DNA of 64,000 nt, taken from the IMG/VR virus record IMGVR_UViG_3300045988_135095. One strand, given 5' to 3'. Of the stretch, positions 28,967 through 63,940 are shown one piece after another (position 1 is the stretch's first letter; each line of letters opens with the position of its first letter). The notes under the pieces are model-generated. The model did no database searches. It had not been told where the DNA came from and saw only the letters and a program-made list of their open reading frames with translations. The position numbers and the translations under genes are program-made. The DNA comes from a virus.

Positions 28967-29383
28967 TTATTTATCAAATTCTTCACGCAACTCAATAAGT
29001 TTGTTTGTGAAATAAACCATAGTTTCTTTCAAAAGTGAAACCATGTCTTTGTGATTGAGTATGTCGCCAACCGCTGTGTAGTACTTAAGATTATCGTTCG
29101 CCTCAATAAGGTCAAATTCTCCACAGCTTGCCACATTGGTGTTGAAAGACTCTTCCTGGAAGAAGCCATTTTTTTTCTGGTAACGAATCACCAGGCTTCT
29201 GTTTCTTTCGACTCCTTTTAAATTCAAACAAACGTTAAGTGACTTAAAACCAAAATCGATATATTCTACCTCCCAATCAGGACAAACTGAAATTACATTA
29301 ATAATCTTAATCTTGGCTGACTCAAGTGTATTCTTGATGTTCTTTCTAACCTCTTCCTTCTTTGTTTCAACTGAATTGTTCAT
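28967..29383 (-). CDS. hypothetical protein, first gene behind promoter cassette A
   Basis: Track ORF, 138 aa. The conserved leader GTTGAACCAATTAAAATTATAAAAGATT precedes the ATG. Confidence 0.45.
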   Translation of the reverse strand: MNNSVETKKEEVRKNIKNTLESAKIKIINVISVCPDWEVEYIDFGFKSLNVCLNLKGVERNRSLVIRYQKKNGFFQEESFNTNVASCGEFDLIEANDNLKYYTAVGDILNHKDMVSLLKETMVYFTNKLIELREEFDK

Positions 29384-29525
29384 AATCTTTTATAATTTTA
29401 ATTGGTTCAACTTATAAGGTAGGCTCTGAATAGTCAAAAGTACTACCTTTATCTATATGCAAAGGTACGAAAATTTTCTGATATATGCAAATATACCAAT
29501 GATTATTTTAGTTAAAAATACTAAA
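29384..29525 (-). repeat. 142-bp promoter/leader cassette, copy A
   Basis: Near-identical to 38778..38919 and 53058..53199. Partial copies lie at about 47340..47462 and 33541..33610. Confidence 0.8.
29460..29491 (-). promoter_or_regulatory. promoter TTTG-N20-TACCTTTG (cassette A)
   Basis: Minus strand reads TATATTTGCATATATCAGAAAATTTTCGTACCTTTG. Confidence 0.6.
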
Positions 29526-29552
29526 ACCATTAAATATATGCGAATATATCCG

Positions 29553-31000: not shown

Positions 31001-31195
31001 ATGAGAAAGAAGAAGGAAGAAGAGAAACTGCACTTTTGCCGTGAATGTGCTCATGCTACTGACTTTCATAGTATGAGCCTTAAAGGTCAGCCTATCCTAG
31101 CCAAATGCCCATATCAAGAATGGAGCGTTCTTCTCAACTGGGATTGCTGCCAACACTTTAAAATGAAATTGTATGAAAAAGCCAAAACTGCCTAA
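31001..31195 (+). CDS. small Cys-rich protein
   Basis: 64 aa with CRECAH...CPYQ...CCQHF. GGAGGAA SD upstream. Confidence 0.35.
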   Translation: MRKKKEEEKLHFCRECAHATDFHSMSLKGQPILAKCPYQEWSVLLNWDCCQHFKMKLYEKAKTA

Positions 31196-32555
31196 TCAGA
31201 AAAAGGCATATAAAGACCTTGGCAAGAGACTGAACGCTTATACCCGGAAAATCATTTCCATATATGAGACTCTTGCCAAGGAGTCCGCTAAAATCGCCAC
31301 CTCCACCGACTTCGATGGGGATGGCGAGTTCTCTTTTGATGATTACCCTAGAACAGAAAGGAAGGTAAACGCCTTGTTGGATTACTATTCAAACAATATG
31401 CAGGCCTTGGTCTATAATGGCATATCGGACGAATGGAAGAATAGTAACACCCTGCAGGACCTACTTGCCAAAAGGGTAATCGGCACCTTTACTAGGAAGA
31501 TAGCGGACGCAAAGCAGAAAGCTTACTTTGAGCACAACAACGCGGCAAAGAAGGCTTTCATGGAGAGAAAGATTAAAGGTCTAGGTCTTTCAGAAAGAAT
31601 ATGGAACCAGAGAGCTGATGTAAAGGAGGCTCTGGAGAAATCTCTGTCTGTCGGCATAGAGAAGGGTATGAGTGCTGTTAAACTCAGCAAGAAGGTCAGC
31701 AAGTACCTTAATGATTATCCATCACTTGCCAAAGACTATAAGAAGAAATACGGCAAAGCCATAACTATTCAGAACTGCGAGTACAGAAGCGTTCGCCTGG
31801 CACGTAACGAGATAAACATGGCCTACCGTTCTGCCGAGCAAGAAAGATGGGCAAGGATGGACTACATTAAAGGCAAGGAAATAAAGACTACCAACAACCC
31901 AAGTCATAAGCACGATATGTGTGATTTGCTTGCAGGTGTCTATCCGAGTTATTTTCCTTGGGTTGGTTGGCACGTAAATTGTATGTGCTATGCCATCCCG
32001 GTAATAATGAGCGAGAAAGAGTATTGGAGTGGGAAACAGCCAAGCAATGCTATGCCTAAGAACTTCACAAATTGGGTGAATGACAATAAAGACAAGGTGA
32101 AGCAATCATCCTATATCACCCAATACGCTCGCTCTGAAAGGTCACAAAGGCAAGTTCGAATAGCTGCACAGAACTCACCAGAGGTGAGGGAAAGACTTCG
32201 AGAATTCATTAATGAGACAATGCAAACAAAATTTAAAGAGGTAGAGCTACCAGACGGTCAAACGGCTAGAAGGCTTTATCTCAATAATAATAATGAGGAA
32301 TTTGTGGTAGGACGAAATTTCTTTTCTGAAACGATGGCAAAGAATATTAGAAATAGAAGACTTAGCGAAACAATACAAATTGCAGCCGATGTAAACGAAT
32401 GGTTTCCTACAGCAACATTTGACAGGATTGAGGAAGGTAACCATCATGATTTTCAGTTCAAAGTATTCCATGCTACTTATCAAGGAAAACGAATAGAATG
32501 TAAGGCTAAACTTACAAGTGAAAATATCCTTTATACTATGAGATTACTAAACTAA
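31173..32555 (+). CDS. head morphogenesis protein (SPP1 gp7 / Mu F-like)
   Basis: 460 aa. VRLARNEINMAYRSAEQ resembles the Mu-F/gp7 core. Adjacent to the portal gene. Confidence 0.7.
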   Translation: MKKPKLPNQKKAYKDLGKRLNAYTRKIISIYETLAKESAKIATSTDFDGDGEFSFDDYPRTERKVNALLDYYSNNMQALVYNGISDEWKNSNTLQDLLAKRVIGTFTRKIADAKQKAYFEHNNAAKKAFMERKIKGLGLSERIWNQRADVKEALEKSLSVGIEKGMSAVKLSKKVSKYLNDYPSLAKDYKKKYGKAITIQNCEYRSVRLARNEINMAYRSAEQERWARMDYIKGKEIKTTNNPSHKHDMCDLLAGVYPSYFPWVGWHVNCMCYAIPVIMSEKEYWSGKQPSNAMPKNFTNWVNDNKDKVKQSSYITQYARSERSQRQVRIAAQNSPEVRERLREFINETMQTKFKEVELPDGQTARRLYLNNNNEEFVVGRNFFSETMAKNIRNRRLSETIQIAADVNEWFPTATFDRIEEGNHHDFQFKVFHATYQGKRIECKAKLTSENILYTMRLLN

Positions 32556-32646
32556 AAAAACAAGGGATTGGAAACCCTCCCGAAGTCTGCATCCGAAGAC
32601 CGACGTGTGAGAGGTCTATCCAATCCCTATTTATCTTTTTCCTTCA
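32554..32646 (-). ncRNA. candidate ~93-nt structured RNA; its outer hairpin could also act as a bidirectional terminator
   Basis: Own promoter (32653..32684). 10-bp outer stem AGGGATTGGA/TCCAATCCCT (32563..32628), two UUCG loops, then TGTTTTTTT. No ORF longer than about 18 codons. Confidence 0.35.
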
Positions 32647-32652
32647 CCGCTG

Positions 32653-32684
32653 CAAAGGTAATATTTTATTTTGGAAAATCCAAA
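32653..32684 (-). promoter_or_regulatory. promoter TTTG-N20-TACCTTTG with no ORF downstream
   Basis: Minus strand reads GATTTGGATTTTCCAAAATAAAATATTACCTTTG. Confidence 0.45.
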
Positions 32685-32708
32685 TCTTTTCTTGGAATTT
32701 TAATTGGT

Positions 32709-33413
32709 TCAAGCCCTCGTTGGTGCATTTAATGTCTTATAAGCATCAAAAGCTAATGTGCTCACGTGCTCACTGATGGTGGTGGAGATTGTCATAATGT
32801 CTCCCATAAGGAGCATCGTCTCGCCCTTTCCGACCTCTGTAATGAGATTCAAAAGGCAGTTGATTTCATCCTTAAGCGTCTCGGCTTTCTTCATCAGCGG
32901 TGTTGGCGGCTCGACCTTGACCTCTTTCTTCTTCTCGCCAGATTGAGAAGCAATACACTTCTCAACAGCCTTCGGCACTCTCGGCTTCGGGAGGTTGCAG
33001 ATGATGTTCTTCTCCTTCAATGCGAGAAGCCAGCGTCTGCCTCGCTCCGTCCAAAGAGGTCTTCTTGTGTACTTGCCCTTGATGACGTGTGTAGTCACCT
33101 CAGTTAGCTGATAGGTGGAGTAGGGACTTGTCAGCATCCACTCATAACCCTGGTTGAACGCAAGGCCAACCTCCTTCAGCTCTTCGTACAGCTTCTGTGC
33201 GCTGCTCATGCCCAACTCCTTCGCCATCTGCGTAGTGGAATAGACACCCTTTGTCATGTCGCACTTCTGCACTCTCTTGAAGCACTCATCGATTCTCTCC
33301 TGGAGATCACCGGTGATTTCCTTCTGTCTTGTTAACCACTCCTGGTCCTTTTTAAATTCGACCAGCATTTCCTTTGCGAACTCTTTCAAGCTCATATCTG
33401 CATTTGTTGCCAT
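32709..33413 (-). CDS. antirepressor-like protein (KilAC/ANT-type C-domain)
   Basis: Starts at the ATG at 33413. YSTTQMAKELGMSSAQKLYEELKEVGL...WMLT...WTERGRRWL resembles the KilAC domain (from memory). Has its own promoter. Confidence 0.5.
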   Translation of the reverse strand: MATNADMSLKEFAKEMLVEFKKDQEWLTRQKEITGDLQERIDECFKRVQKCDMTKGVYSTTQMAKELGMSSAQKLYEELKEVGLAFNQGYEWMLTSPYSTYQLTEVTTHVIKGKYTRRPLWTERGRRWLLALKEKNIICNLPKPRVPKAVEKCIASQSGEKKKEVKVEPPTPLMKKAETLKDEINCLLNLITEVGKGETMLLMGDIMTISTTISEHVSTLAFDAYKTLNAPTRA

Positions 33414-33445
33414 AAGAATCTGTTTAAGCAACCATCGAGCTCATT

Positions 33446-38281: not shown

Positions 38282-38485
38282 TTAAGCGATTTCAAACTTC
38301 TGTGTAGGATTGTTCTTCTGCAAGCGAGCAAGAACATCGTCCTGTGACTTCTCGTTTCCGAAAGCCATATACTCTGTAGGTTTTGTATCTCTCTCACCAT
38401 TTTTCTTGAATGAATAGATGAGAGCAAATTTAGAAATGTAAACTCTTCCGTTTTTTACATTCTCTTTTTCAAGTAACTGTTTCAT
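38282..38485 (-). CDS. hypothetical protein
   Basis: ATG at 38485 preceded by the TTGAACCAATTAAAAATAAAGATT leader. The track start at 38509 is a TTG inside that leader. Confidence 0.4.
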   Translation of the reverse strand: MKQLLEKENVKNGRVYISKFALIYSFKKNGERDTKPTEYMAFGNEKSQDDVLARLQKNNPTQKFEIA

Positions 38486-38525
38486 AATCTTTATTTTTAA
38501 TTGGTTCAACGTCTGTTTTTGCTAT

Positions 38526-38777
38526 TTAAGCGATGGTGGTCTCGTACAACTTCTTGGTTGCCTCGAACACCTTTTCTCCCTGGAACATTCCGCAGTCTGC
38601 ACTCTCGAAGCCCCAGTCCTCTGCGTCTCCGTCAAATATACCATATGCTGAAACTCGGAACAATGTAGGTGCAACTGAAACTACATTGATTGCCATCTTG
38701 CCAGATGCTATTCTCATAAGCTCTGAAACCTCATTAACTGTCATTTCATCAAAGCGAGCATAAACTAAATTCTTCAT
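38526..38777 (-). CDS. hypothetical protein, first gene behind cassette B
   Basis: ATG at 38777. The track start at 38810 is a TTG that translates the conserved leader. Confidence 0.4.
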   Translation of the reverse strand: MKNLVYARFDEMTVNEVSELMRIASGKMAINVVSVAPTLFRVSAYGIFDGDAEDWGFESADCGMFQGEKVFEATKKLYETTIA

Positions 38778-38919
38778 AATCTTTATAATTTTAATTGGTT
38801 CAACTTGCAAGGTAGCTCCTGTATATCCAAAAGTACTACCTTTTATCTATATGCAAAGGTACGAAAATTTTCTGATATATGCAAATATACTAACGATTAT
38901 TTTAGTTAAAAATACTAAA
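38778..38919 (-). repeat. 142-bp promoter/leader cassette, copy B
   Basis: Aligns end to end with copies A and C. Confidence 0.8.
38854..38885 (-). promoter_or_regulatory. promoter TTTG-N20-TACCTTTG (cassette B)
   Basis: Core identical to cassette A. Confidence 0.6.
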
Positions 38920-38999
38920 TTATAATGCGCTGGTAATCAAATAGTTAAGGCGCCTACTCTCACGAGCAAACGCCTAGCTAACATGGTTTTAAAAAGAAA

Positions 39000-40478
39000 T
39001 TACAAGAAACCGCCACGTCGGAGCTGTGCATCGGTAGCATTGTTAAGCCACTCCTCGCACTTCTCTATGATGCCCGTACAAGCGTCCGGCGCATCATCGT
39101 GGGCGTTATATCCTTCCTTTCTGTAGGATTTCATATCGTGGGCGAACTCCGGCCACAACTGTTCCCAATTAGAAGGGAAGACTAGTTTATTGTTTACCTC
39201 GCTGGAGCGAGTGAATATTCTAATCTGTTTGTTCTTCGATTGCGTGAACGTTACGAACTGGGTAATTCTGTTTCCGTGTTCCCTTGTTATGCGCTCGACA
39301 TTGCGGGCGTAAGAGCGTCCACCATTGTTACTTTCAACGAAACACACGTCTGTCTGATTGCGCTTAACCATATTGGCTTGCGCTGGTTCCGTGTATTCCA
39401 TCGGTCGCTTAGTGTATAGAACATCGGTAACATAGTAGCCGTCATCGTGTGCATCGAAGCATATAGAGCAAAGGAAGTCGAAACCGGTATCTGCCGAGTC
39501 TGTGTAGTTGCCAATCATTCTTGCATACCTTCTGTCCGGCAGCTCATCGTATGTTCTGAAGGCATGGTACATAAGACCTTCCATAGGGGTAGGGTTCTGC
39601 ATGTACTGTGTCTCAAATACGAACTCGCTGGCATGCTTGATTTTATACAGCTCCTCCAGCGTATGCTTCCACGGCCACAAGGCTCGCTCCTTTCCGTCCT
39701 CGTCTGTCTGTATTACCGGGAGGGAAACAACCTTCCACTCATTCGGCTCAATCTCTTGAAGGTAACCGCACAAGTCGTGCTCGTGCAACCTCTGCATGAC
39801 GATGATAATTGGCGTATGACGTGAGTTTACACGGTTACGGATGGTTGTCTCGAAACGTCTGTTGATAGACTCTCTGACGTTATCGGACAAAGCATCGTCC
39901 GGTCGTAAAGGGTCATCGATAACTATGGCTCCCGAAAAGTGACCGGGGTTGAACGTAGCCATGAACTTATCCATGTTCTTTATGTCTTCTTCGGTCCAGT
40001 CTGGCTGACCTGCACCAAAACCTGTGATCTGACCCAAGGTAGATGTAGCATACTCACCACCACCTGCCGTTGTGCTCCATTTTGATCTTGTGTTATCGTT
40101 CTTTCTGATTTTGACATTCGGAAATAGTGTTTGAAAATATGTAGAAGTTATCGTGTCCTTGACTGCCATTGAGTTGTCCTGGACGAGACTTCCGGAATAA
40201 GATATATGAAGAAACTTTGAAGCAGGGTTCAGCGCAAGACCATATGCGATAAACATCTGTGAACACAAGAGTGTCTTTCCATAACGAGGGCTGATGTTGA
40301 TAATCAGCTTGTTAGTCTTTCCCCTTATCACATCCATGAGCGCATCACATATAATCCTGTGATGTTCGCCTATTACATACTCACGTCGAGCAGTATAGGC
40401 GAACATCTTAGTAGTGAATTGCAGCAGGGACGATGCCACTAACTGCTTATGAAGAAAACGTTGTTTCTCAAAGTCCAT
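39000..40478 (-). CDS. terL: terminase large subunit
   Basis: 492 aa with Walker A ISPRYGKT, Walker B AIVIDDP and a C-terminal nuclease-like acidic motif. Preceded by a small-subunit gene. Confidence 0.85.
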   Translation of the reverse strand: MDFEKQRFLHKQLVASSLLQFTTKMFAYTARREYVIGEHHRIICDALMDVIRGKTNKLIINISPRYGKTLLCSQMFIAYGLALNPASKFLHISYSGSLVQDNSMAVKDTITSTYFQTLFPNVKIRKNDNTRSKWSTTAGGGEYATSTLGQITGFGAGQPDWTEEDIKNMDKFMATFNPGHFSGAIVIDDPLRPDDALSDNVRESINRRFETTIRNRVNSRHTPIIIVMQRLHEHDLCGYLQEIEPNEWKVVSLPVIQTDEDGKERALWPWKHTLEELYKIKHASEFVFETQYMQNPTPMEGLMYHAFRTYDELPDRRYARMIGNYTDSADTGFDFLCSICFDAHDDGYYVTDVLYTKRPMEYTEPAQANMVKRNQTDVCFVESNNGGRSYARNVERITREHGNRITQFVTFTQSKNKQIRIFTRSSEVNNKLVFPSNWEQLWPEFAHDMKSYRKEGYNAHDDAPDACTGIIEKCEEWLNNATDAQLRRGGFL

Positions 40479-52450: not shown

Positions 52451-52630
52451 TTACATAATGCCCTCCTTCATCAAGAGCTTATACTCTTCCATGCTGTCCC
52501 CAACGTGGCCATACAAGCAACCGTCCTCGACGTTCTTCCAATACTCTTGTTGGGTGGAATATGCCGCCATACTGGCGACTACGACCACGTAGCCCAATGA
52601 TTTAATAAGATTGAAATTTGAATTTCTCAT
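52451..52630 (-). CDS. small hypothetical protein (59 aa)
   Basis: Manual translation MRNSNFNLIKSLGYVVVVASMAAY... A variant AACCAATTAAAA leader lies upstream. Confidence 0.3.
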   Translation of the reverse strand: MRNSNFNLIKSLGYVVVVASMAAYSTQQEYWKNVEDGCLYGHVGDSMEEYKLLMKEGIM

Positions 52631-52661
52631 AATTATTCCCTTTCTATGAATTTTAATTGGT

Positions 52662-53057
52662 TTATATTTTACTAATCTGAAGCGACATTCTGGTTAAAAT
52701 CATCTTGTCGATTTCTTCGAGGCAACTGTGCTCATCGAGCGTCCTCAAATCATCTATTGAATCGAGATATTCTTTCACGGTCTCGAAAGAACAATAGCTG
52801 CTCCCGTACTTACGGAAGTACTCTTCCTCTATGAATCTGACCAGCATATACTGCTTGCGAAGCATGTCGAAATATGGATTATCTCTGTAATTGCCCAAAT
52901 TGTGGTCTGGTCTAAGATTTTCCTCAATCTCTCCAAAAGCCCTGAAAACTTTATCCGTCGAAAGGCATACGACCGCACACTCTCTGAAATGTTTCTGCAA
53001 CTGTTCCTTTTTAGAGGAGGTCAAACTGCTAGTTTCAATATATCCTAACTTCTTCAT
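52662..53057 (-). CDS. hypothetical protein, first gene behind cassette C
   Basis: Track ORF with ATG start and the conserved leader. Confidence 0.45.
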   Translation of the reverse strand: MKKLGYIETSSLTSSKKEQLQKHFRECAVVCLSTDKVFRAFGEIEENLRPDHNLGNYRDNPYFDMLRKQYMLVRFIEEEYFRKYGSSYCSFETVKEYLDSIDDLRTLDEHSCLEEIDKMILTRMSLQISKI

Positions 53058-53199
53058 AATCTTTATAAATTTAATTGGTTCAACTTGTAAGATAGGCTCT
53101 GAATAGTCAAAAGTACTACCTTTTATCTATATGCAAAGGTACTAAAATTTTCTGATATATGCAAATTTACCAACGATTATTTTAGTTAAAAATACTAAA
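53058..53199 (-). repeat. 142-bp promoter/leader cassette, copy C
   Basis: Aligns end to end with copies A and B. Confidence 0.8.
53134..53165 (-). promoter_or_regulatory. promoter TTTG-N20-TACCTTTG (cassette C)
   Basis: Core spacing matches cassettes A and B. Confidence 0.6.
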
Positions 53200-53226
53200 T
53201 CATAGTACTTTATAACTATCTGATTA

Positions 53227-54630: not shown

Positions 54631-55289
54631 CTGAACGATACCTCCTCAAAACTTAAAATATCAAACATTTCGTGCATTCTATCTACAATTCTTGGGTCAT
54701 CGTACTTCTGTCCGATGTCAATGGCCGTTAGGTTTGAACTGATAATCGTGGGCAGCATCTGCTCATAGCGATAGTCCAACAACTCGTCAAACGGCTTGTA
54801 GTGCATTCCGTAAGTGACTATCTCCGTTGGCTCAGCACCCAAATCGTCAATCAAGAGAAACTTAGTGTTCATGATTGCTCTGAACTCGTTTATGTCTTCG
54901 TGAATCATGTAAGCCATATCTCTAGCCTTGACGAATCGCGGATATTTGTCACCCTCGCAATAGCTAATCTTGTTTGAGTCCACAAGATGAACTAGCAAAT
55001 CTCGAATAGCCTTTAGCATTGTAGTCTTGCCGTTTCCAATACTGCCGGGCATAAACAGCCCGTAAAAGTTTGTCTCTGTAGTAAGAAAATCCCCGACTTT
55101 CGATATTGCTTCCTTTAGCTCGTCAGTGAAGACGAACGTTCTTTTTCTTTTCTCTACCTCTCGTTTGTAGGCATAGTAAAGAAAGTTCTTGACTTCTCTA
55201 TTTTCCAACGGCAACTCCAAACCCCGACCTATACGCTGATGTGTCTTTGTGGTCTGGAGCTTTCCATCCTGTCTTTGTGTTGTTTCCAT
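54627..55289 (-). CDS. DnaC/IstB-like helicase loader ATPase
   Basis: 220 aa with Walker A PGSIGNGKTT and Walker B LLIDDLG. ATGA overlap with dnaB. Confidence 0.75.
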   Translation of the reverse strand: METTQRQDGKLQTTKTHQRIGRGLELPLENREVKNFLYYAYKREVEKRKRTFVFTDELKEAISKVGDFLTTETNFYGLFMPGSIGNGKTTMLKAIRDLLVHLVDSNKISYCEGDKYPRFVKARDMAYMIHEDINEFRAIMNTKFLLIDDLGAEPTEIVTYGMHYKPFDELLDYRYEQMLPTIISSNLTAIDIGQKYDDPRIVDRMHEMFDILSFEEVSFR

Positions 55290-56223
55290 TGTCTGTTACG
55301 TTTTGTCTATGATTTTTCATTTCTGATACTATCTCGTTGTATTGAGAATCAATTTTGTTAACCGAAAAATTGTTCATTATCCAAGTCTTGTCGATACGAC
55401 GCAGAAACTCTTCCAATGCCTTAAGCAAGCTCTCGTCATCTATCGGAAGCGGCACTGTTTTGTGACTTCTAGCAAAAGAAATCTTCTTTAGGATAGAGTT
55501 CATAGCCTTTGCATCCTTGGGTTGCCAATAATAGGCAGAGTCATAGAGTTCTTGGTAATACTTCTCGAATATTTGCCGTCCCTTGTGGCAGATGGTAAAC
55601 TCTTTCGGTTTCGATTTCCTCGTGCGTGCGCTAGAAGGAGAAGATAATTTTATATTATCTTCCCGTTCCGTAGGAACGGAATATATATTCTTTGAAGGGT
55701 TTGGGGAACTTTCTTTGGACTCTGGCATTTGCTTAGCATTTGCTAGAGATTCGCTAGCATTTGCTAGAATATCTGTAGCATTTGCCAGAGAATTTGTAGC
55801 ATTTGCTAGAGAATTTGTAGCATTTGCTAGAGATTCGCTAGCATTTGCTTGGCATTTGCTAGAAGATTCCTTAGCATTTGCTACGAAATTTCTAGCCTTT
55901 GCTGCACCACCTGCACGACCGGCTCTAGCTCTAGCTTCGCTGACTTTTCTTGCCTGCTCGATGGTGTCTGAAAGTTCCTTAGAATAGAAATATTCTTCCT
56001 CAACCTCGAATAAATCAAAATCCTCAACTACAGATTGCACCACGGAAACATCAACACGCATCTCATAAGCTATCATAGAATAATCCTTTGACAGCTTATG
56101 ATCCTCGTCTTCCTCCAATATTTGCATAAGAGCAACGTAGATGCCGTAGGCAGCTATGCCGTGCTTCACCCTTGCTCTCATTACTTCTGGAGAATCACTA
56201 TTTCTGATGCAATTATATTTCAT
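55198..56223 (-). CDS. replication initiator (DnaD/DUF4373-like N-domain) containing heptad repeats
   Basis: 341 aa. N-terminal domain ...GIAAYGIYVALMQIL..., then the repeat LANATNSLANATNSLANATDILANASESLANA. Lies upstream of the loader and helicase genes. Confidence 0.55.
   Translation of the reverse strand: MKYNCIRNSDSPEVMRARVKHGIAAYGIYVALMQILEEDEDHKLSKDYSMIAYEMRVDVSVVQSVVEDFDLFEVEEEYFYSKELSDTIEQARKVSEARARAGRAGGAAKARNFVANAKESSSKCQANASESLANATNSLANATNSLANATDILANASESLANAKQMPESKESSPNPSKNIYSVPTEREDNIKLSSPSSARTRKSKPKEFTICHKGRQIFEKYYQELYDSAYYWQPKDAKAMNSILKKISFARSHKTVPLPIDDESLLKALEEFLRRIDKTWIMNNFSVNKIDSQYNEIVSEMKNHRQNVTDNGNNTKTGWKAPDHKDTSAYRSGFGVAVGK
55725..55901. repeat. iteron-like array: 10 copies of GCATTTGC at 21-bp (and 11-bp) phasing
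   Basis: Copies start at 55725, 55736, 55757, 55778, 55799, 55820, 55841, 55852, 55874 and (GCCTTTGC) 55894. Flanking AT-rich palindromes lie at about 55642..55690. Confidence 0.55.
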
Positions 56224-56227
56224 AATC

Positions 56228-56515
56228 TTATTGGTTCAAGTCCTCGTTCTTAATGAAGCATATCTTACCTCGCTTTATACTATTTGCCAGGGAGTCAACT
56301 TCTGTCTGCAACTTACTGTAAACAGCACTTTGCTGCTTAGAGATAAAATTGTGGATAGAAGGGCTAATCTTTAAAGCGATAAAAGCCATCCCCTCTAAAA
56401 TTTTAAACTCACGATACAACACACCTGCCGACTTGAACTGTTTGTCCAAGCCTACCAAGAACGTTCTGTAGTCCTTGATTCCTTCAAAATCTCTAAGAAA
56501 TTCTGTCTCTTCCAT
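56228..56515 (-). CDS. hypothetical protein
   Basis: ATG at 56515 (MEETEFLRDF). The track start at 56590 is a TTG inside the promoter. Confidence 0.4.
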   Translation of the reverse strand: MEETEFLRDFEGIKDYRTFLVGLDKQFKSAGVLYREFKILEGMAFIALKISPSIHNFISKQQSAVYSKLQTEVDSLANSIKRGKICFIKNEDLNQ

Positions 56516-56559
56516 ATTGTGTAATATTTTATTTATAACTATATTGTTTCTCCTTAATG

Positions 56560-56591
56560 CAAAATTACGAATTTTATCTGATATATGCAAA
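56560..56591 (-). promoter_or_regulatory. promoter TTTG-N20-TAATTTTG of the replication operon
   Basis: Minus strand reads CTTTTGCATATATCAGATAAAATTCGTAATTTTG. Confidence 0.55.
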
Positions 56592-56639
56592 AGAATTAAC
56601 TTAAATATTCAAAAATACCGAAATATATTTAGATATATA

Positions 56640-56671
56640 TTTGGCTATCTCAATTTTTTTTAGTACTTTTG
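56640..56671 (+). promoter_or_regulatory. plus-strand promoter TTTG-N20-TACTTTTG
   Basis: Exact canonical spacing. Divergent from the replication-operon promoter. Confidence 0.45.
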
Positions 56672-56677
56672 CAGTAA

Positions 56678-56752
56678 GTTTTTTCCATTATATTCTGTAA
56701 AAGAATATTGTATGGGTTTCTCTTTAGCCTGCTGGCGAGCAGGCTTTTTTTA
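56678..56752 (+). ncRNA. candidate ~75-nt plus-strand RNA ending in an intrinsic terminator
   Basis: Terminator AGCCTGCT-ggcg-AGCAGGCT (56726..56745) plus TTTTTTT. The only ORF (56712..56912) reads through the terminator. Confidence 0.4.
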
Positions 56753-56762
56753 TTGGGATTTA

Positions 56763-56794
56763 TTTGGCAATTTGAAAATAATTCATTACCTTTG
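56763..56794 (+). promoter_or_regulatory. second plus-strand promoter TTTG-N20-TACCTTTG
   Basis: Exact canonical spacing. Confidence 0.45.
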
Positions 56795-56800
56795 CAAACA

Positions 56801-56884
56801 AATCCCTTTAAAGTATAATCTTTATAGGATTTTAATTGGTTCAAGTCCTCGGTGTTGTGAAACACTGGGGACTTATACTTTTTA
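56801..56884 (+). ncRNA. candidate ~85-nt plus-strand RNA antisense to the conserved operon-leader motif
   Basis: No ATG. Contains TATAATCTTTATAGGATTTTAATTGGTTCAAGTCCTCGG. 13-bp stem (56844..56873, GTGA loop) followed by TATACTTTTTA. Confidence 0.4.
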
Positions 56885-57373
56885 CAGATTAACGGTGATA
56901 CCTTTCTCATAACTCAGTCTCTTTACTTCATTAGTATAATACTTAATCATTTTCTCCAACTCATCGTCATCCCATTTCTTGATGGAGTGAGCACGCTCTC
57001 GCAGGGTGGAAAATCGGGAAACACCAATCTTCTTTATCAGATTCTCCTGGTAGTATATAAGATGGTCTGACTTCACTCTGTTGCACCCGATACATTCTGC
57101 ATTGCAGTTATCTTCATCAAATCGGGTGGCCATGTTGGAACGTCCGAAGAAATGACCGCAATCAAGCTCTCTGTACGGCTTTATCTTTCCGCAGCTGATA
57201 CATTGTCCCATGCCGCTTGGCATGCAGTCTCTCAGACGTATATACAATGCAAACACCTTGTCTAGTCTCTTGACCAAATCAGGCTTACTCTTCTTTCTCT
57301 TTTTGGGAGCAGAAGGAGATTTCTTCTTTTTCTTATAAAATGGAAACATTTCTTTTGAATTTACATGTAACAT
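56882..57373 (-). CDS. NinG/Rap-like recombination protein
   Basis: 163 aa. CISCGK...DCGHFFGRS...CIGCN resembles lambda NinG (from memory). Confidence 0.6.
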   Translation of the reverse strand: MLHVNSKEMFPFYKKKKKSPSAPKKRKKSKPDLVKRLDKVFALYIRLRDCMPSGMGQCISCGKIKPYRELDCGHFFGRSNMATRFDEDNCNAECIGCNRVKSDHLIYYQENLIKKIGVSRFSTLRERAHSIKKWDDDELEKMIKYYTNEVKRLSYEKGITVNL

Positions 57374-57545
57374 ATTTGTCCGTCATGTTCGCAAAATCAA
57401 CACATAAACGGCAAGCTAAACTTCCTACATAAATTGGTTCTTGTGTAAATACTCCCTTTCTGCAATGCGGACAGAGAGTTAAATACTCAGTTCCTAATGC
57501 GGAATCTCTTTGCTTATATTCAATAAGCTCATTTAGAACGCTCAT
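57333..57545 (-). CDS. small zinc-ribbon protein
   Basis: 70 aa with CPHCRKG...CRLC. Confidence 0.35.
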   Translation of the reverse strand: MSVLNELIEYKQRDSALGTEYLTLCPHCRKGVFTQEPIYVGSLACRLCVDFANMTDKYVTCKFKRNVSIL

Positions 57546-58717
57546 CTTAGTACGACATTAGTTAATTGTGTTCCTCTGGAATACACCGCCCATTTCGTGG
57601 TTCCTGGAGGTCTGCTAATAAAGAGGTCTGCGACATTTCCGAATCGGCTATAGTTTCCCGACAAGTCAACTATCCACCCGTCCTTTCCTTCAAAAGGTCT
57701 GATAGCTCGGCCTACCATCTGATAGTAGAGCCCGAGAGATTTCGTCGGGCGTGCCAAAACAACGGTGTCTAGGGCAGGGTAGTCGAATCCCGTAGTCAGC
57801 ACACCTACGTTGGCAACAACCTTTATTTCTCTCCTCTTGAATCCTTCGAGAATGGCTTCACGCTCCTTTTTTGGTGTCTCTCCTGTCACGATGGCGGCAT
57901 TGACTCCGAGTGATTGAAGCTTATCAACCAACTGCCTAGCCTCCTTTGTGAAAGCGGTAAATACAAGTACCCCCTTTCTGGGAATGCCGCTTTTAGGCTG
58001 CAGGACCTTGACTACTGTATTTGATAGCTTATCATAGAATCCGCAACGCTCGTACTCTGCGAGGAGACTTCTTTCATCATAATCTGCACCGGTGGAATTG
58101 CTTCTGACTCTCCTTAAATCCAATTCTGTCAAATCATAATAATGCAAGTCTGCAAGATAACCTTTGGAAAGCAGCTCTCCAATCTGGCAACAATAGATGA
58201 CCTTTGAAAATATTCTAGGTCTTACTCTCGTGAGGAACTTCAATATGGAACCTCCTTCGGCACGATCAAGGCGGTATGGTGTGGCTGTTAATCCAACAAC
58301 CTGTCTGTTCTTCGCTTCTATGAACTGCTTGTATTGCCCTGACTTCGAGTTTACATAATGACATTCGTCAATTATGATGTTCTTGAAACAATCGAAGTCT
58401 GACATATGGTTCATCACGCTCCCGATGGTGGCAAAGGTTATTCTGTTTATATCCTTACATCCTACAGAAGCACTATAGCAACCACAATCGAAGATACCAT
58501 AGCTTTGCAGCTTGGCAAAGTTCTGCTGAAGAATTTCCTTACTGGGCTGAAAGACTAACAGCGGTCCTTCCAGGCGAGAGGCAATATCTGCTATCACCAA
58601 GCTCTTTCCTGCACCCGTAGGAAGGATAACCAATCCGTTCTTGTCAGCCTTGCTAGTGAACAGCCTTACGGCTGCATCACTAGCTTGCTTTTGATAATTT
58701 CTAAGAGTGTACTTCAT
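57542..58717 (-). CDS. SF2 DEAD/DEAH-box helicase
   Basis: 391 aa with motifs PTGAGKS, IIDECH, TATP and QMVGRAIR. Confidence 0.85.
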   Translation of the reverse strand: MKYTLRNYQKQASDAAVRLFTSKADKNGLVILPTGAGKSLVIADIASRLEGPLLVFQPSKEILQQNFAKLQSYGIFDCGCYSASVGCKDINRITFATIGSVMNHMSDFDCFKNIIIDECHYVNSKSGQYKQFIEAKNRQVVGLTATPYRLDRAEGGSILKFLTRVRPRIFSKVIYCCQIGELLSKGYLADLHYYDLTELDLRRVRSNSTGADYDERSLLAEYERCGFYDKLSNTVVKVLQPKSGIPRKGVLVFTAFTKEARQLVDKLQSLGVNAAIVTGETPKKEREAILEGFKRREIKVVANVGVLTTGFDYPALDTVVLARPTKSLGLYYQMVGRAIRPFEGKDGWIVDLSGNYSRFGNVADLFISRPPGTTKWAVYSRGTQLTNVVLR

Positions 58718-60274: not shown

Positions 60275-61004
60275 CTGATTCTGTTAATGGTAAATATGGT
60301 AATAATTCTCTCATTTCTACCCATTTGAGGAAGTCACGCAATAGAGCGTGGTTCTTATCTTCCATTCCCGGGTATCTGTAACAAGTGATTGCTGGCTCAT
60401 AAGGAGTAAGCTTGAGACCTCTCACGTCTCCCTTGTGCTTATCCTTATTGTAGCCCTCAAAGACAAACAAGTCAAAATGGAACACATCAGCTTCAAACAA
60501 CTCTAGGTAAAGCTGCCATTGGCAACTATCTATATAGTCTTTGTCTGATACCGGTCCGTACTTAGTCTTGATGTCTCTTATCTCTAGTCCGTCAATCATA
60601 TCGGCACATCCCGTGATAACGGCATTGCCGAAATCCTTGTATTCACGAACCTCATGAAAGGCGCCAGGATGCTCATTTCTGTATTTCAAAGCAACCTTGC
60701 ATTGTGGAATGTCGAGAATCGCTTCACCTTCATCAAAGACGAATCTTCTTCCTTTTGGAACGGGTTCTGTCTTATCTTTCTTATAATAGGTGAAATGACG
60801 AACACCTTCCGGCTCCTTGAAACAATGGGGACTGCCAGTCTCCACGATGGAGTGAAAGGCAGTTCCTATTCTTGTGTAATCGTTGCCCTCAAACTTCTTA
60901 GTGATATTGTCTATAACGTCCTGCTCTGTAACATAAGCATATTCGTCAGACATATACCGTCTGAAGCTCTCTAGCTGGGTAACTCTAACCAAAGGCTTCA
61001 TCAT
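60267..61004 (-). CDS. PD-(D/E)XK-type nuclease
   Basis: 245 aa with GCADMIDG...EIRDIKT (D...D/E-x-K). Located in the recombination module. Confidence 0.55.
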   Translation of the reverse strand: MMKPLVRVTQLESFRRYMSDEYAYVTEQDVIDNITKKFEGNDYTRIGTAFHSIVETGSPHCFKEPEGVRHFTYYKKDKTEPVPKGRRFVFDEGEAILDIPQCKVALKYRNEHPGAFHEVREYKDFGNAVITGCADMIDGLEIRDIKTKYGPVSDKDYIDSCQWQLYLELFEADVFHFDLFVFEGYNKDKHKGDVRGLKLTPYEPAITCYRYPGMEDKNHALLRDFLKWVEMRELLPYLPLTESDG

Positions 61005-61951
61005 GCTGCATCCTCATGCTTGACGAACTTCTTGCCCTTCTTGTCAAAGTCAATGCCTTTGACAGCAAGTTCCTTGATCATCTGATTCATGAATGCCTTC
61101 TGATGAATCTTGTTCAATCCGCGGGCAACCTCGATGAGAGCATTTGCATCATCTACAGTCTCCACGGCTGCAAGCTTCTTTCGAGCATCATCAACGGCTT
61201 TCTGTGCCTTAGCCTGAGCATCTGACTTATTCACGATGGCTTTCTTCACCTTCTTGATGATGTCTGCCATGCAAGTATCAAACTCCTCTGTTCCGTAAAC
61301 AGGAATCCAAGTGTCCTGCAGGTCTGCAACATTCTTACCAACACGATTATCCTGTGGCTCGAACTTGATGACGCGATTGCCGTTCTCCTTGCAGATATAA
61401 CCTACCTGGTCCGCAATACGGATGAGCAAGTCCTTGCTCTGTCCTGTACAGTCTGGAGAATGCTTGATGTTGTCTCCCTCCTGTGTCTCTTTGTCGTGAC
61501 AGATGAAGATGATATCGGAGTTGTTTGAACGGAGAATGCCGACAAACTGCTTGAACAATTCTCCCATCACGCCATATCGCTTCAACGAGTTAGTTCCCAG
61601 CTTATGGTCTTGCTGAATAGCAAAAGCGTTGAGATAGTCATCGAGCATAGCCTTGGCAGTATCTACTACGATGGTCTTACACTCACTGATCAAACCTGGC
61701 TTCCAAACCTGCTTGCCATCCTCAACAACATAAGAACCGATAACCTCAGCATTATAGATGTCTTCCCAGCGTGAAGCCGTGACAACAATGTCTGGACGCT
61801 GAACGGCACGGTCAAAGCCTCGGTCGGTGTCGATGAGTAAAGGACTGTTGGCTGTAGTAGCCAAAGATGTCTTACCGGTACCTGGAGTACCATAAAGTAC
61901 AATAATCACTGGACGCTCTGTAACGACGTCATTCTTTCTAATAATTGGCAT
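61001..61951 (-). CDS. Sak4-like RecA-fold ATPase (AAA_24-type)
   Basis: 316 aa with Walker A YGTPGTGKTS and LLIDTD. Confidence 0.7.
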   Translation of the reverse strand: MPIIRKNDVVTERPVIIVLYGTPGTGKTSLATTANSPLLIDTDRGFDRAVQRPDIVVTASRWEDIYNAEVIGSYVVEDGKQVWKPGLISECKTIVVDTAKAMLDDYLNAFAIQQDHKLGTNSLKRYGVMGELFKQFVGILRSNNSDIIFICHDKETQEGDNIKHSPDCTGQSKDLLIRIADQVGYICKENGNRVIKFEPQDNRVGKNVADLQDTWIPVYGTEEFDTCMADIIKKVKKAIVNKSDAQAKAQKAVDDARKKLAAVETVDDANALIEVARGLNKIHQKAFMNQMIKELAVKGIDFDKKGKKFVKHEDAA

Positions 61952-61961
61952 AAACTAATAT

Positions 61962-62525
61962 TTAATTGTTAAACAAATTGTTCTTATTTGCATAGGTGAT
62001 AAACTCAGAGAGCTTATGTATTCCTAGTTTCACATACACAGACTTTACGTGCTGATGTATCGTGTTCGGGGAGTTGAATAGCTCGGCTGCAGCCTCCTGC
62101 TCGCTTCGTCCCTCATAAAGCAGTTTCATCACGCGCAACTCCGCAGTAGAAAGATTAGCATTAAACCTTGGCATACAGACGATGCTATCATAAGGGCATT
62201 CACCACGCATTGGGCATTCGACCTTCTCGAAGTTGAACCTTCCATCCTTGTCAACATCGACGACATCAAAAGCCGTAGTGTCGAGTCGACAAAAGTTGCA
62301 TTTGCAAAATCGACGCATCATGAGATACTGATAATAACTCTCGTTAGGTGCGCTCTTGGAGTAAATCTTCTCCAACGCCTTGTATGCTTCCGGATAGCAA
62401 GCGCGAACCTTTTCCAGGATGTATTTCACCAGCTCTGTATGTGTCTCATCGACCATGAAGTTCTTTCCGTCTGACGTCTTACACCATAGCTCATCCTCGA
62501 ACATATAGAACTCTAATCCTTCCAT
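61962..62525 (-). CDS. LuxR/GerE-type HTH regulator with Cys-rich N-domain
   Basis: C-terminal LSTAELRVMKLLYEGRSEQEAAAELFNSPNTIHQHVKSVYVKLG. N-terminal CKCNFC...ECPMRGECP...VC. Confidence 0.6.
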   Translation of the reverse strand: MEGLEFYMFEDELWCKTSDGKNFMVDETHTELVKYILEKVRACYPEAYKALEKIYSKSAPNESYYQYLMMRRFCKCNFCRLDTTAFDVVDVDKDGRFNFEKVECPMRGECPYDSIVCMPRFNANLSTAELRVMKLLYEGRSEQEAAAELFNSPNTIHQHVKSVYVKLGIHKLSEFITYANKNNLFNN

Positions 62526-62767
62526 AAGTCCTCCTCGCTAATGCCTGTTAGCTCACACAATACTTCTACATGGATGTGCTGCTGTGGCTTCATGCCATAT
62601 AGAACCCAATTCCTAACTGTCTGCTCGGTAACCTTGCAGCGTTTAGCGACTTCCGTGATGAAGTCGTATCGCGGGGCACTTCTCATCGGTAACCCCTGAT
62701 AATAACCTTTTAAGGTCATTTTTTGAGATTTTTCCTCAAAAGTGTTTGATGTTTGAATATTTTCCAT
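62513..62767 (-). CDS. Cro-like HTH protein
   Basis: ATG at 62767 (MENIQTS). HTH ITEVAKRCKVTEQTVRNWV. The track start at 62905 is a GTG running through the promoters. Confidence 0.55.
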   Translation of the reverse strand: MENIQTSNTFEEKSQKMTLKGYYQGLPMRSAPRYDFITEVAKRCKVTEQTVRNWVLYGMKPQQHIHVEVLCELTGISEEDLWKD

Positions 62768-62775
62768 TATCTTTG
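62744..62775 (+). promoter_or_regulatory. plus-strand promoter TTTG-N20-TATCTTTG for the repressor gene
   Basis: Canonical spacing. Overlaps the cro-like start codon. Confidence 0.45.
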
Positions 62776-62805
62776 CACTATGTTTTATATCTTTATGCAA
62801 AGATA
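62768..62805. promoter_or_regulatory. 38-bp inverted unit TATCTTTGCA-N18-TGCAAAGATA (two face-to-face -7 boxes / operator candidate)
   Basis: A copy with the same spacing lies at 63737..63774. Confidence 0.45.
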
Positions 62806-62829
62806 CAAATATATTCTGATATATGCAAA
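62798..62829 (-). promoter_or_regulatory. minus-strand early promoter TTTG-N20-TATCTTTG
   Basis: Minus strand reads TATATTTGCATATATCAGAATATATTTGTATCTTTG. About 30 nt upstream of the cro-like ATG. Confidence 0.55.
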
Positions 62830-62872: not shown

Positions 62873-63250
62873 ATGTTCAAATATAAAGAATTTAGAAGAG
62901 CTCACGGACTATTTCAGTCTAAGCTTGCAGAAATTATGGGAATTTCCCAATCTAACATTTCGAGATACGAAACAGAGGGTATAGATCCTACACCTGCGCA
63001 GTTTCAGAAACTATACGATGAGTATGGAGAAGAAAATGTCAAGGCTTTCGAGGTAGAACCTTCTCAATTCGTTAATGCAGAGAATAATGTAAACAGTGGC
63101 TCTGGAAATCAGAACAACGGAATCCAAAGTAATGCTGATTTAGTAGAAATTATAAAGAGGCAGACTGAGATGATAGCAAAGCATATCGAAAAACAAGATG
63201 ATATAAATGTACGTCTCATGAATCTTCTTGAAAAATTAACTTTGAAATGA
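62873..63250 (+). CDS. XRE-family HTH repressor (CI-like, no peptidase domain)
   Basis: 125 aa with RRAHGLFQSKLAEIMGISQSNISRYETEG. On the opposite strand to the cro-like gene and pointing away from it. Confidence 0.7.
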   Translation: MFKYKEFRRAHGLFQSKLAEIMGISQSNISRYETEGIDPTPAQFQKLYDEYGEENVKAFEVEPSQFVNAENNVNSGSGNQNNGIQSNADLVEIIKRQTEMIAKHIEKQDDINVRLMNLLEKLTLK

Positions 63251-63543
63251 AACTGAATATTCCCGATTGTGCCCTGGATATTAGCGACAGGTTCTTCAAA
63301 GCACTTGATGTTCTCAAAGAACAGAGAAAAATTAAAGGCTTACAGACTTTTACAAAAGAGTTTGGTTTGAACTATGGTAACATGAATACTCTAAAGCATA
63401 ACAGAGATAAGCGTACTTTTCGTATAGAGTATCTTGCTTACCTCGCCGAAGGGTATGGTGTATCATGCGAGTGGCTACTGCTTGGAACCGGTCCCATGTT
63501 TACACAAACATGTTCCAAAAGCGAAGAATCTCAGAACCTTTGA
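63247..63543 (+). CDS. second HTH protein
   Basis: 98 aa. ...YLAEGYGVSCEWLLLGTGPMF is typical of the end of phage-repressor HTH domains. ATGA overlap with the repressor gene. Confidence 0.5.
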   Translation: MKLNIPDCALDISDRFFKALDVLKEQRKIKGLQTFTKEFGLNYGNMNTLKHNRDKRTFRIEYLAYLAEGYGVSCEWLLLGTGPMFTQTCSKSEESQNL

Positions 63544-63694: not shown

Positions 63695-63736
63695 GTTAAA
63701 TAGTTTAAATGCGTGCTAGAATAAAGGATTTCTTTA

Positions 63737-63774
63737 TATCTTTGCACTAAGTTATAAATTCAAATGCAAAGATA
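63737..63774. promoter_or_regulatory. second copy of the 38-bp TATCTTTGCA-N18-TGCAAAGATA unit
   Basis: Shares TATCTTTGCACTA and ATGCAAAGATA with 62768..62805. Confidence 0.4.
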
Positions 63775-63797
63775 AATGAAAAAAATGATATATCAAA
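63767..63797 (-). promoter_or_regulatory. promoter TTTG-N19-TATCTTTG for the excisionase-like gene
   Basis: About 75 nt upstream of the ATG at 63694. Confidence 0.4.
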
Positions 63798-63940
63798 ATA
63801 TATGTGGATATATTTAAATATAATTAATATTTCTGCATATTGTGTAACTCGAGAAAATGGCATGCTTGCAAATAGCTTGCAAATAAAAAAAACGGGTCTC
63901 TGTAATTAATTGAGGCTAAGATAGTTATATCGAAAAGCTT

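Follow-up and report, generated by a model that had tools for sequence, protein, structure and literature searches.

A putative small RNA antisense to a repeated translation-initiation leader in a Bacteroidota-type gut phage

The DNA studied here (hereafter the window) is a 64,000-nt stretch of IMG/VR virus record IMGVR_UViG_3300045988_135095, and it represents most of one Bacteroidota-type gut phage genome. Judging from the sequence, positions 56763-56884 are very probably a genuine small-RNA gene: a plus-strand unit with its own promoter and terminator, located in the 365-bp gap between the genes for NinG and orf95. On balance, we favor the view that the RNA is a trans-acting repressor of a leader shared by several genes, blocking the initiation of their translation. 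The minus strand carries nearly all genes of the window, and many of them are probably throttled together by this one RNA. A preliminary description of the window had proposed, as its core reading, an independent plus-strand RNA without an open reading frame (ORF) that is antisense to the shared leader. Covariation in the terminator hairpin, conservation, an exposed seed, and the co-evolution of RNA and leaders all appear to support that reading.

The promoter matches the Bacteroides consensus (PMC7366714), with the -33 element TTTG at 56763-56766, the -7 element TACCTTTG at 56787-56794, and a spacer of 20 nt. The corresponding pattern, TTTG-N17-23-TAnnTTTG, occurs 21 times in the window against 2.1 expected. 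Only four of the 21 copies are on the plus strand, and two of these lie within the NinG/orf95 gap. The 5' end of the RNA is expected about 5-8 nt past the -7 box. The parts of the unit are as follows.

56763..56794, plus strand: small-RNA promoter, an exact match to the Bacteroides consensus
56800..56884, plus strand: predicted small RNA of ~85 nt, placed from the promoter and terminator positions, with its 3' end in the T-run
56800..56832, plus strand: 5' stem-loop, AAAUCC/GGAUUU with an inner UAAAG/CUUUA stem
56814..56826, plus strand: antisense block 1 (UAUAAUCUUUAUA), which pairs with UAUAAAGAUUAUG of the targets and covers the start codon
56830..56844, plus strand: antisense block 2 and seed (UUUUAAUUGGUUCAA), a single-stranded linker between the two hairpins
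56843..56884, plus strand: intrinsic terminator, a 14-bp hairpin with a GUGA tetraloop (56843-56874) followed by AUACUUUUUA

The terminator hairpin reads AAGTCCTCGGTGTT-GTGA-AACACTGGGGACTT (14 pairs, 56843-56874). It is followed directly on its 3' side by ATACTTTTTA, and the T-run overlaps the minus-strand stop codon of NinG (56882-56884). In the 5' stem-loop, the loop and the 3' side are the antisense counterpart of the AAAGAUUAUG start region. A stem-loop is folded at this position in most lineages, from differing sequences. The core of the seed is UAAUUGGUU (also written UUAAUUGGUUCAA), and its counterpart in the target leaders is AACCAAUUA. The predicted fold of the whole RNA has an energy of -30.7 kcal/mol (z = -6.3 against shuffled sequences). 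The structural statements of the preliminary description were borne out: its plus-strand promoter is an exact TTTG-N20-TACCTTTG match, no ATG occurs on the plus strand in 56795-56884 (a stretch of about 85 nt had been claimed to lack one), and the hairpin it gave as 13 bp (56844..56873) is present together with its tail, extending to 14 pairs.

A number of other identities for the unit were rejected. A small protein on either strand is not compatible with the lack of a plus-strand ATG, with the absence of a conserved ORF from both strands, or with indels among lineages that disrupt every reading frame of the unit; the minus-strand pseudo-leader has ATA in the window, and in other lineages it opens short non-homologous ORFs or none. 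No Rfam family reached its gathering score in the window, and none, C4 included, was found at E<=10 in 56500-56950; the rteR family, at 19 bits against a gathering score of 72, was treated as noise. A tRNA, tmRNA or attachment-site reading of GGTTCAAGTCC was dismissed, as ARAGORN finds none in the window and the flanks ATTGG/CCTCG form no T-stem. The hairpin is not a minus-strand terminator of NinG, because UUGAACC rather than a T-run comes next on that strand, and it also has C·A mismatches when read there. The promoter segment (56762-56796) is an inverted likeness of another promoter at 32651-32685, with flanks GGGATTT/AAATCCC. An invertible promoter was nevertheless rejected: all 61 of the 61 distinct relatives are colinear and no flipped variant was seen among them, the segment is only ~40 bp long, and the likeness is largely that of the promoter consensus.

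The putative RNA is complementary to a leader that recurs in the window. Leaders with ATG at 53057, 38777, 38485, and 29383 read GTTGAACCAATTAAA(A/T)T-TATAAAGATT-ATG or, as RNA, GUUGAACCAAUUAAA(A/U)U-UAUAAAGAUU-AUG. They pair with 56830-56844 (14-15 nt) and 56814-56826 (12 nt), so that the duplex spans about -26 to +3 relative to the start codon; the second block reaches 13 nt if the G of AUG wobbles with U56814. The start region of a 341-aa gene (ATG at 56223) reads CGAGGACTTGAACCAAT-AAGATTATG and pairs in blocks of 17+8 nt. All statements made earlier about this complementarity (12+15 nt for the cassettes, 17+8 nt for the initiator) hold at the sequence level. The partner of the 10-mer seed, AACCAATTAA, occurs seven times, always on the minus strand, against 0.21 expected. 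We scanned ~3200 minus-strand windows of 60 nt for duplex formation with the RNA (background mean -13.9, sd 3.9 kcal/mol), and the target sites listed previously fall in the extreme tail, at -28.7 to -35.3 kcal/mol. The matched sites are given below.

53055..53083, minus strand: leader and start codon of the first gene (52662-53057) behind cassette 53040-53204; duplex -29.7 kcal/mol
38775..38803, minus strand: leader and start codon of the first gene (38526-38777) behind cassette 38760-38924; -30.7 kcal/mol
38483..38509, minus strand: leader and start codon of the second gene (38282-38485) of the 38777 operon; -30.4 kcal/mol
29381..29410, minus strand: leader and start codon of the first gene (28967-29383) behind cassette 29366-29530; -28.7 kcal/mol
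56221..56246, minus strand: 3' end of orf95 and start of the 341-aa gene (CGAGGACUUGAACCAAU-AAGAUUAUG); -35.3 kcal/mol, 17+8 nt
32697..32719, minus strand: the strongest trans match, CGAGGGCUUGAACCAAUUAAAAU; -43.2 kcal/mol, 23 bp including one G·U
52628..52662, minus strand: an extra leader copy (AACCAAUUAAAAUUCAUAG...), leader part 52653-52662, upstream of a 59-aa ORF with its ATG at 52630

The last two sites had been missed by the preliminary description. The site at 32697-32719 covers the stop codon of a KilAC/Ant-like gene; it is kept in 68 related loci and shows partial co-variation with the small RNA. At this site and at 56223 the pairing involves the seed and the 5' arm of the terminator. 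The gene starting at 29383 heads a minus-strand block that runs down to position 247 and includes ORFs of 1582, 1088, and 907 aa. A further complementarity was observed at the start region of a LuxR/GerE-family gene (61962-62525, minus strand): CGAGGAGGACUUAUG, at 62511-62540, is complementary to the terminator 5' arm (-31.0 kcal/mol) and may be either an additional target or a chance match.

Related units were collected in two ways. A search with the NinG protein yielded 80 related IMG/VR loci, and a DNA pattern search yielded further, more distant units; the pattern imposed UUAAUUGGUU and the loop on the second set only. The same layout was found in 14 lineages: the -7 box and a short 5' part come first, UUAAUUGGUU is next, and a hairpin with a GUGA loop precedes the T-rich tail. 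The -7 box is almost invariant across these diverged lineages, and the tail is T-rich in every one of the 14. Lineages linked to NinG retain UUAAUUGGUU, the seed, and the loop although the search placed no such constraint on them. Both the architecture and the position after a NinG-like gene are kept in five diverged lineages (L064, L067/68, L069, L071, and L076), and the unit persists where NinG identity drops to about 60-80%. Four further lineages from the pattern scan (L111, L108, L127, and L099) have the same architecture and were counted on that basis.

The alignment of the terminator hairpin indicates that the structure itself has been maintained. Compensatory double changes were found in 9 of 13 pairs. 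Pairing holds in 97% of the hairpin cells; shuffling the columns leaves 71%, and sliding the partner by 1-3 columns leaves 36-49%. Read as the plus strand, the hairpin has 25 G·U cells, and read as the minus strand it would have a single one; selection has therefore acted on the plus-strand RNA helix. Most lineages are predicted to fold as a 5' stem-loop, a single-stranded UAAUUGGUU, and the terminator. In 9 of 12 lineages the predicted probability that the seed is unpaired is 0.63-0.83, compared with 0.36-0.42 for the whole RNA.

A set of 57 close relatives, all distinct, gave the following diversity for each segment.

56816-56845, plus strand: antisense block, 2 of 30 positions variable, pi 0.0045
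Promoter of the unit, plus strand: 4 of 32 variable, pi 0.014
Hairpin of the unit, plus strand: 3 of 29 variable, pi 0.012
Neighboring spacer: 28 of 48 variable, pi 0.089
56678-56725, plus strand: body of the adjacent unit, 25 of 48 variable, pi 0.17
Last 16 nt of NinG, minus strand: 5 of 16 variable, pi 0.059

The antisense block has the lowest diversity in the intergenic region, and the unit as a whole lies below the adjacent coding DNA as well. Antisense block 1 falls inside or beside this 30-nt low-variation block. The pattern indicates that the antisense block is under very strong purifying selection.

Co-evolution of the RNA with its leaders was compared wherever the unit and at least one leader of a lineage were available. 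UCGAACC is found in the unit and the leader of L069, and UAGAACC in the unit and four leaders of L076. The unit of L111 has UUAACC, and its two leaders have UAAACC and UUAACC. In L099, UUUGAG replaces UUAAAG in the unit and the leader alike. The window carries UAUAAAG in both unit and leader, and most other lineages carry AUUAAAG in both. In L067 GAAGGC has replaced GAGGAC in the 5' arm of the hairpin, the 3' arm has changed to match, and GAAGGC is likewise found on the same contig (L215) in the site at the 3' end of the Ant-like gene. Averaged over eight lineages, the predicted duplex energy was -25.1 kcal/mol for cognate pairs and -20.7 kcal/mol for non-cognate pairs; only 13 of 40320 permuted assignments of units to leaders scored as well.

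Several observations weigh against repression of the leaders in trans. The unit of L071 has UAUAACC, and the single leader sampled from that lineage has UUGAACC; the unit and the Ant site are mismatched in L019; and the cognate advantage is just ~4 kcal/mol. The likeness of units and leaders could also be kept up by recombination or gene conversion among the repeats rather than by selection for pairing. The predicted accessibility of the window seed is moderate (0.63), and accessibility is poor in 3 of 12 lineages. The T-run of the window is short and begins 5 nt off the stem (AUACUUUUU), where most relatives have U6. Read-through RNA of the NinG operon is a perfect complement (-70.6 kcal/mol) and could be the main partner of the small RNA or could titrate it. 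The predicted effect on the targets, finally, may be repression or activation.

The read-through RNA is also central to the first of the alternatives, in which the RNA is real and acts in cis only, insulating orf95 and the replication operon from NinG read-through, while its likeness to the leaders reflects nothing but ancestry. Insulation could come about by convergent transcription from this promoter and that of a neighboring unit at 56640, or by a duplex with the read-through RNA and cleavage by RNase III. The perfect complement in cis speaks for such a role, as does the position of the two promoter-terminator units of the plus strand, which lie in tandem exactly in the gap from one minus-strand operon to the next. 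On the minus strand, no T-run follows either hairpin; there is no minus-strand terminator after NinG, and so its transcripts would read into orf95 and the replication operon. The small RNA overlaps NinG itself by only 3 nt of the stop codon, in addition to the untranslated read-through region. However, a cis-only role predicts that the sequence from promoter to terminator is free to vary, yet variation is lowest in the antisense block, and the neighboring unit (56640-56751), with the same geometry, has a highly variable body. It also leaves unexplained the single-stranded seed and the co-variation with distant leaders in several lineages. We regard a cis-only role as unlikely.

A second alternative is that the motif (C)GAGGACTTGAACCAATTAAAAT is a site acting at the level of DNA or sense RNA, that the copy at 56829-56852 is simply one more of these sites, and that the plus-strand transcript is incidental. 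The motif might then serve a phage regulator as its operator, act as a linker for recombination where modules join, or function in the minus-strand mRNA as an enhancer of translation or a site of processing. All seven copies are in one orientation and at gene junctions, and the leader is a point of exchange for different genes. The reading frame differs between the two copies that overlap the ends of coding regions, which argues that conservation acts on the nucleotides. A site of this kind does not explain the conserved consensus promoter facing the motif, the G·U pairs restricted to the plus strand, the T-rich plus-strand tail in every lineage, or the lineage-specific 5' stem-loop. Furthermore, a function of the leader on the sense strand would not take the place of an antisense regulator, with which it is compatible. 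We consider this explanation improbable.

That the unit is what remains, without function, of a rearranged promoter-leader cassette is hardly credible: a leader-like sequence in which ATG has become ATA and the inverted likeness to the promoter at 32651-32685 fit such an origin, but conservation of the unit exceeds that of the adjacent coding DNA, and the unit shows compensatory evolution and persists at NinG identities of ~60-80%. The preliminary description had called the locus a decayed cassette copy. The leader-like sequence and the change of ATG to ATA in the window agree with this, whereas the unit is old and conserved, and ATG is still present in the pseudo-leader of several lineages. 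A simple inverted cassette is excluded, because the promoter faces the leader copy, and in the cassettes the promoter lies upstream on the same strand.

Returning to a trans-acting antisense RNA, the following sequence of events can be proposed. Host RNA polymerase would start near 56800 from the -33/-7 promoter and halt at the hairpin and T-run abutting the NinG stop codon, giving a product of ~85 nt composed of a 5' stem-loop, a single-stranded seed, and the terminator hairpin. The leader GUUGAACCAAUUAAAAU-UAUAAAGAUUAUG would pair from -26 to +3 with the seed and, in the 5' stem-loop, with the loop and 3' side. The leaders addressed in this way would be those of the cassette-first genes (ATGs at 53057, 38777, and 29383) and those at 38485 and 52630, while the seed and the 5' arm of the terminator would pair with the start region at 56223 and the 3' end of the Ant-like gene (32697-32719). 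Translation initiation in Bacteroidota relies on open A/U-rich leaders and does not involve a Shine-Dalgarno interaction. Because initiation needs such open leaders, the duplex should block binding of the 30S subunit. It would lower the translation of all targets together, and probably mRNA stability as well. The RNA would thus be a dosage, timing or immunity-like brake on replication and on the cassette-driven operons.

The leaders of three target first genes are part of 165-nt promoter-plus-leader cassettes on the minus strand (29366-29530, 38760-38924, and 53040-53204). The slot downstream of DnaB holds at least 10 different first genes in 65 relatives (loci L001-L080 near 8290), and genes that head the other cassettes of the window (29383, 38777) fill this slot in other phages. 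Across the 65 relatives the 27-nt leader is almost invariant, with column identities of 0.93-0.96 against 0.53-0.65 in the first codons. Since the leader stays constant while the genes are swapped, it is constrained independently of its gene and acts as a recombination junction. A constant leader means that a single RNA can address many genes; as a junction, it also means that recombination could help the repeats to stay alike. The first genes led by the cassettes gave no matches in Pfam or PHROG searches. Under the mechanism proposed above, any gene recombined in behind the constant leader would fall under the control of the same RNA. It is conceivable, if rather doubtful, that the RNA and cassettes form a modular control system in which the 27-nt leader is both the swap junction and the address of a master RNA, and in which lineage variants are immunity groups. 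Equally tentatively, the variants UUG/UCG/UAG and UUAAAG/UUUGAG might define an RNA-based heteroimmunity that acts on the translation of many operons instead of through a repressor protein.

Two groups of known regulators are close to this RNA. Canonical small RNAs of Bacteroides have their own transcription start site and an intrinsic terminator, and in GibS a long single-stranded seed pairs with translation initiation regions (PMC7366714). The RNA described here is similar to GibS and the trans-encoded small RNAs of B. thetaiotaomicron in its Bacteroides-type promoter, intrinsic terminator, AT-richness, and a long single-stranded seed predicted to pair across the start codon of several mRNAs (PMC7366714). 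GibS differs in being chromosomal, with metabolic targets and a seed at the extreme 5' end, whereas the present gene belongs to a phage, places its seed between two hairpins, and has targets with one repeated leader in common. The unit appears to have the features of a Bacteroides trans-encoded small RNA (PMC7366714), namely a promoter, a terminator, no coding capacity, and an accessible, conserved seed.

The c4 RNA is cut out of a transcript that it shares with its icd-ant targets, and it acts on one operon. Both c4 and sar RNAs of phages block ant translation (PMC12197685). As in c4 of P1 and P7, we see a putative phage RNA of ~77-85 nt with short blocks, exposed in loops or linkers, that would pair around the ribosome-binding region of phage mRNA and prevent its translation, with an antirepressor gene among the targets; differences in c4 sequence from one related phage to another set specificity, i.e., heteroimmunity (PMC12197685). 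Unlike c4, the present unit has its own promoter, is on the strand opposite to all of its targets, lies 0.6-27 kb away from them, and would address at least five dispersed start regions and one 3' end. The antirepressor-like gene is also matched at its stop codon and not at its start. We would not place the unit in the C4 family, and the likeness seems to be one of mechanism only (two blocks, 13 + 15 nt, at -26 to +3).

P22 sar and lambda OOP are small antisense RNAs of phages with their own promoter and terminator, situated between or within opposed genes, and through pairing they reduce how strongly a regulatory gene (ant or cII) is expressed (PMC12197685). The unit resembles them in its setting; however, each of sar and OOP overlaps its target gene with full complementarity, and here the predicted targets are 0.6 to 27 kb off and pair in two blocks. 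The sole overlapping partner of the small RNA is the untranslated tail of the NinG operon. In plasmids, CopA (R1) and Inc RNA (ColIb-P9) are structured RNAs that pair with the leader or start of the rep initiator gene and block its translation. These are encoded opposite the rep leader and act on one gene, whereas the initiator-like gene of the window is one of several partial targets.

The recognizable genes of the window and those of its replication block are listed below.

29583-30998, plus strand: portal
31173-32555, plus strand: head morphogenesis
32709-33416, minus strand: KilAC/Ant-like (antirepressor-like) gene
39000-40478, minus strand: large terminase
55198-56223, minus strand: 341-aa gene with a Lin1244_N domain (replisome-organizer-like), containing internal 21-nt iteron-like repeats
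56228-56515, minus strand: orf95, in the replication block after NinG
56882-57373, minus strand: NinG
57542-58717, minus strand: helicase
61001-61951, minus strand: Sak4
62873-63543, plus strand: two helix-turn-helix (HTH) repressor-like genes

The replication block of the minus strand consists of orf95, the 341-aa Lin1244_N gene, and then DnaC-like and DnaB-like genes. The label of initiator given previously to the 341-aa gene is reasonable for a putative function, in view of the domain, the iteron-like repeats, and the DnaC-like and DnaB-like genes downstream. About nine tandem 21-nt repeats (TAGCATTTGCTAGAGAATTTG) were observed within this gene at 55713-55934; they look like an iteron-type origin embedded in the initiator gene, and relatives have other repeats in this place. 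The two HTH repressor-like genes are flanked by a 73-nt inverted pair of promoter-bearing segments (62745-62829 and 63725-63803), and the region looks like a phage regulatory switch.

The earlier framing of the RNA in terms of a lysogen and its induction was not supported. No integrated copy was found when the initiator protein was searched against 185,579 representative genomes. The DNA pattern gave 37 hits in the same genomes against an estimated ~39 expected by chance, with a real hairpin only in Prevotella sp. (L248). No integrated copy in this set was convincing. Repressor-like and antirepressor-like genes are present in the phage. The sole cultured relative, Bacteroides phage BS-TP2, has 68% identity over NinG/helicase, a different gene order, and no small-RNA unit; an experimental system ready for use was not found. 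In BS-TP2 (locus L266, 5576-5728) the gap upstream of NinG has a minus-strand tRNA-gene-like sequence that is not annotated in the record table.

Other RNA-like elements were observed in the window and its relatives. The second plus-strand unit (56640-56752), located 45 nt upstream of the unit at 56763-56884, has a TTTG-N20-TACTTTTG promoter (56640-56671) and a terminator (GCCTGCTGGCGAGCAGGC and T7, 56727-56752) and would produce an RNA of ~75 nt. Its promoter and terminator are conserved in relatives, and nowhere in the region is variation higher than in its body (pi 0.17). A target scan with its RNA (56640-56751) found the best trans match at the orf95 start region, at -30.2 kcal/mol, which is within the background extremes. 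Directly after the Ant-like gene there is a minus-strand consensus promoter (32684..32653; region 32555-32684, loci L161-L228). Behind it come a conserved leader rich in A/G and a structured, GC-rich RNA of ~66 nt, which ends with GGGATTGGA/TCCAATCCC and a T-run. Relatives have compensatory variants, and some contigs have, downstream of this promoter, two quite different structured RNAs of ~90 nt. Rfam gave no match for the ~66-nt RNA of the window or for the replacement type of L223/L226; the scan covered these two and not the L173 type. Unit-like elements with a promoter, UUUAAUUGGUU, a hairpin with a GUGA loop, and a U-run were also seen in a different gene context in a separate group of contigs, L081 (~7970-9510), L121, L146, and L149, the last with two copies. 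The element in L081 lies ~2.8 kb from a CRISPR-like array of 21 repeats (ATTTTGAAGCAATTCACAAC...) with a spacing of 76-77 nt.

The most abundant viruses of the human gut include Bacteroidota phages. Our literature searches returned no report of a phage-encoded regulatory RNA for Bacteroidota phages. If confirmed, the small RNA would show how such phages coordinate or brake expression without control based on the Shine-Dalgarno sequence. The match between RNA seed and leader would provide a sequence rule for predicting cross-immunity between related gut phages, and the leader and RNA together would make a compact, portable repression module for Bacteroides genetics. If the doubtful modular reading is true as well, a gene captured behind the leader would be controlled automatically by the RNA.

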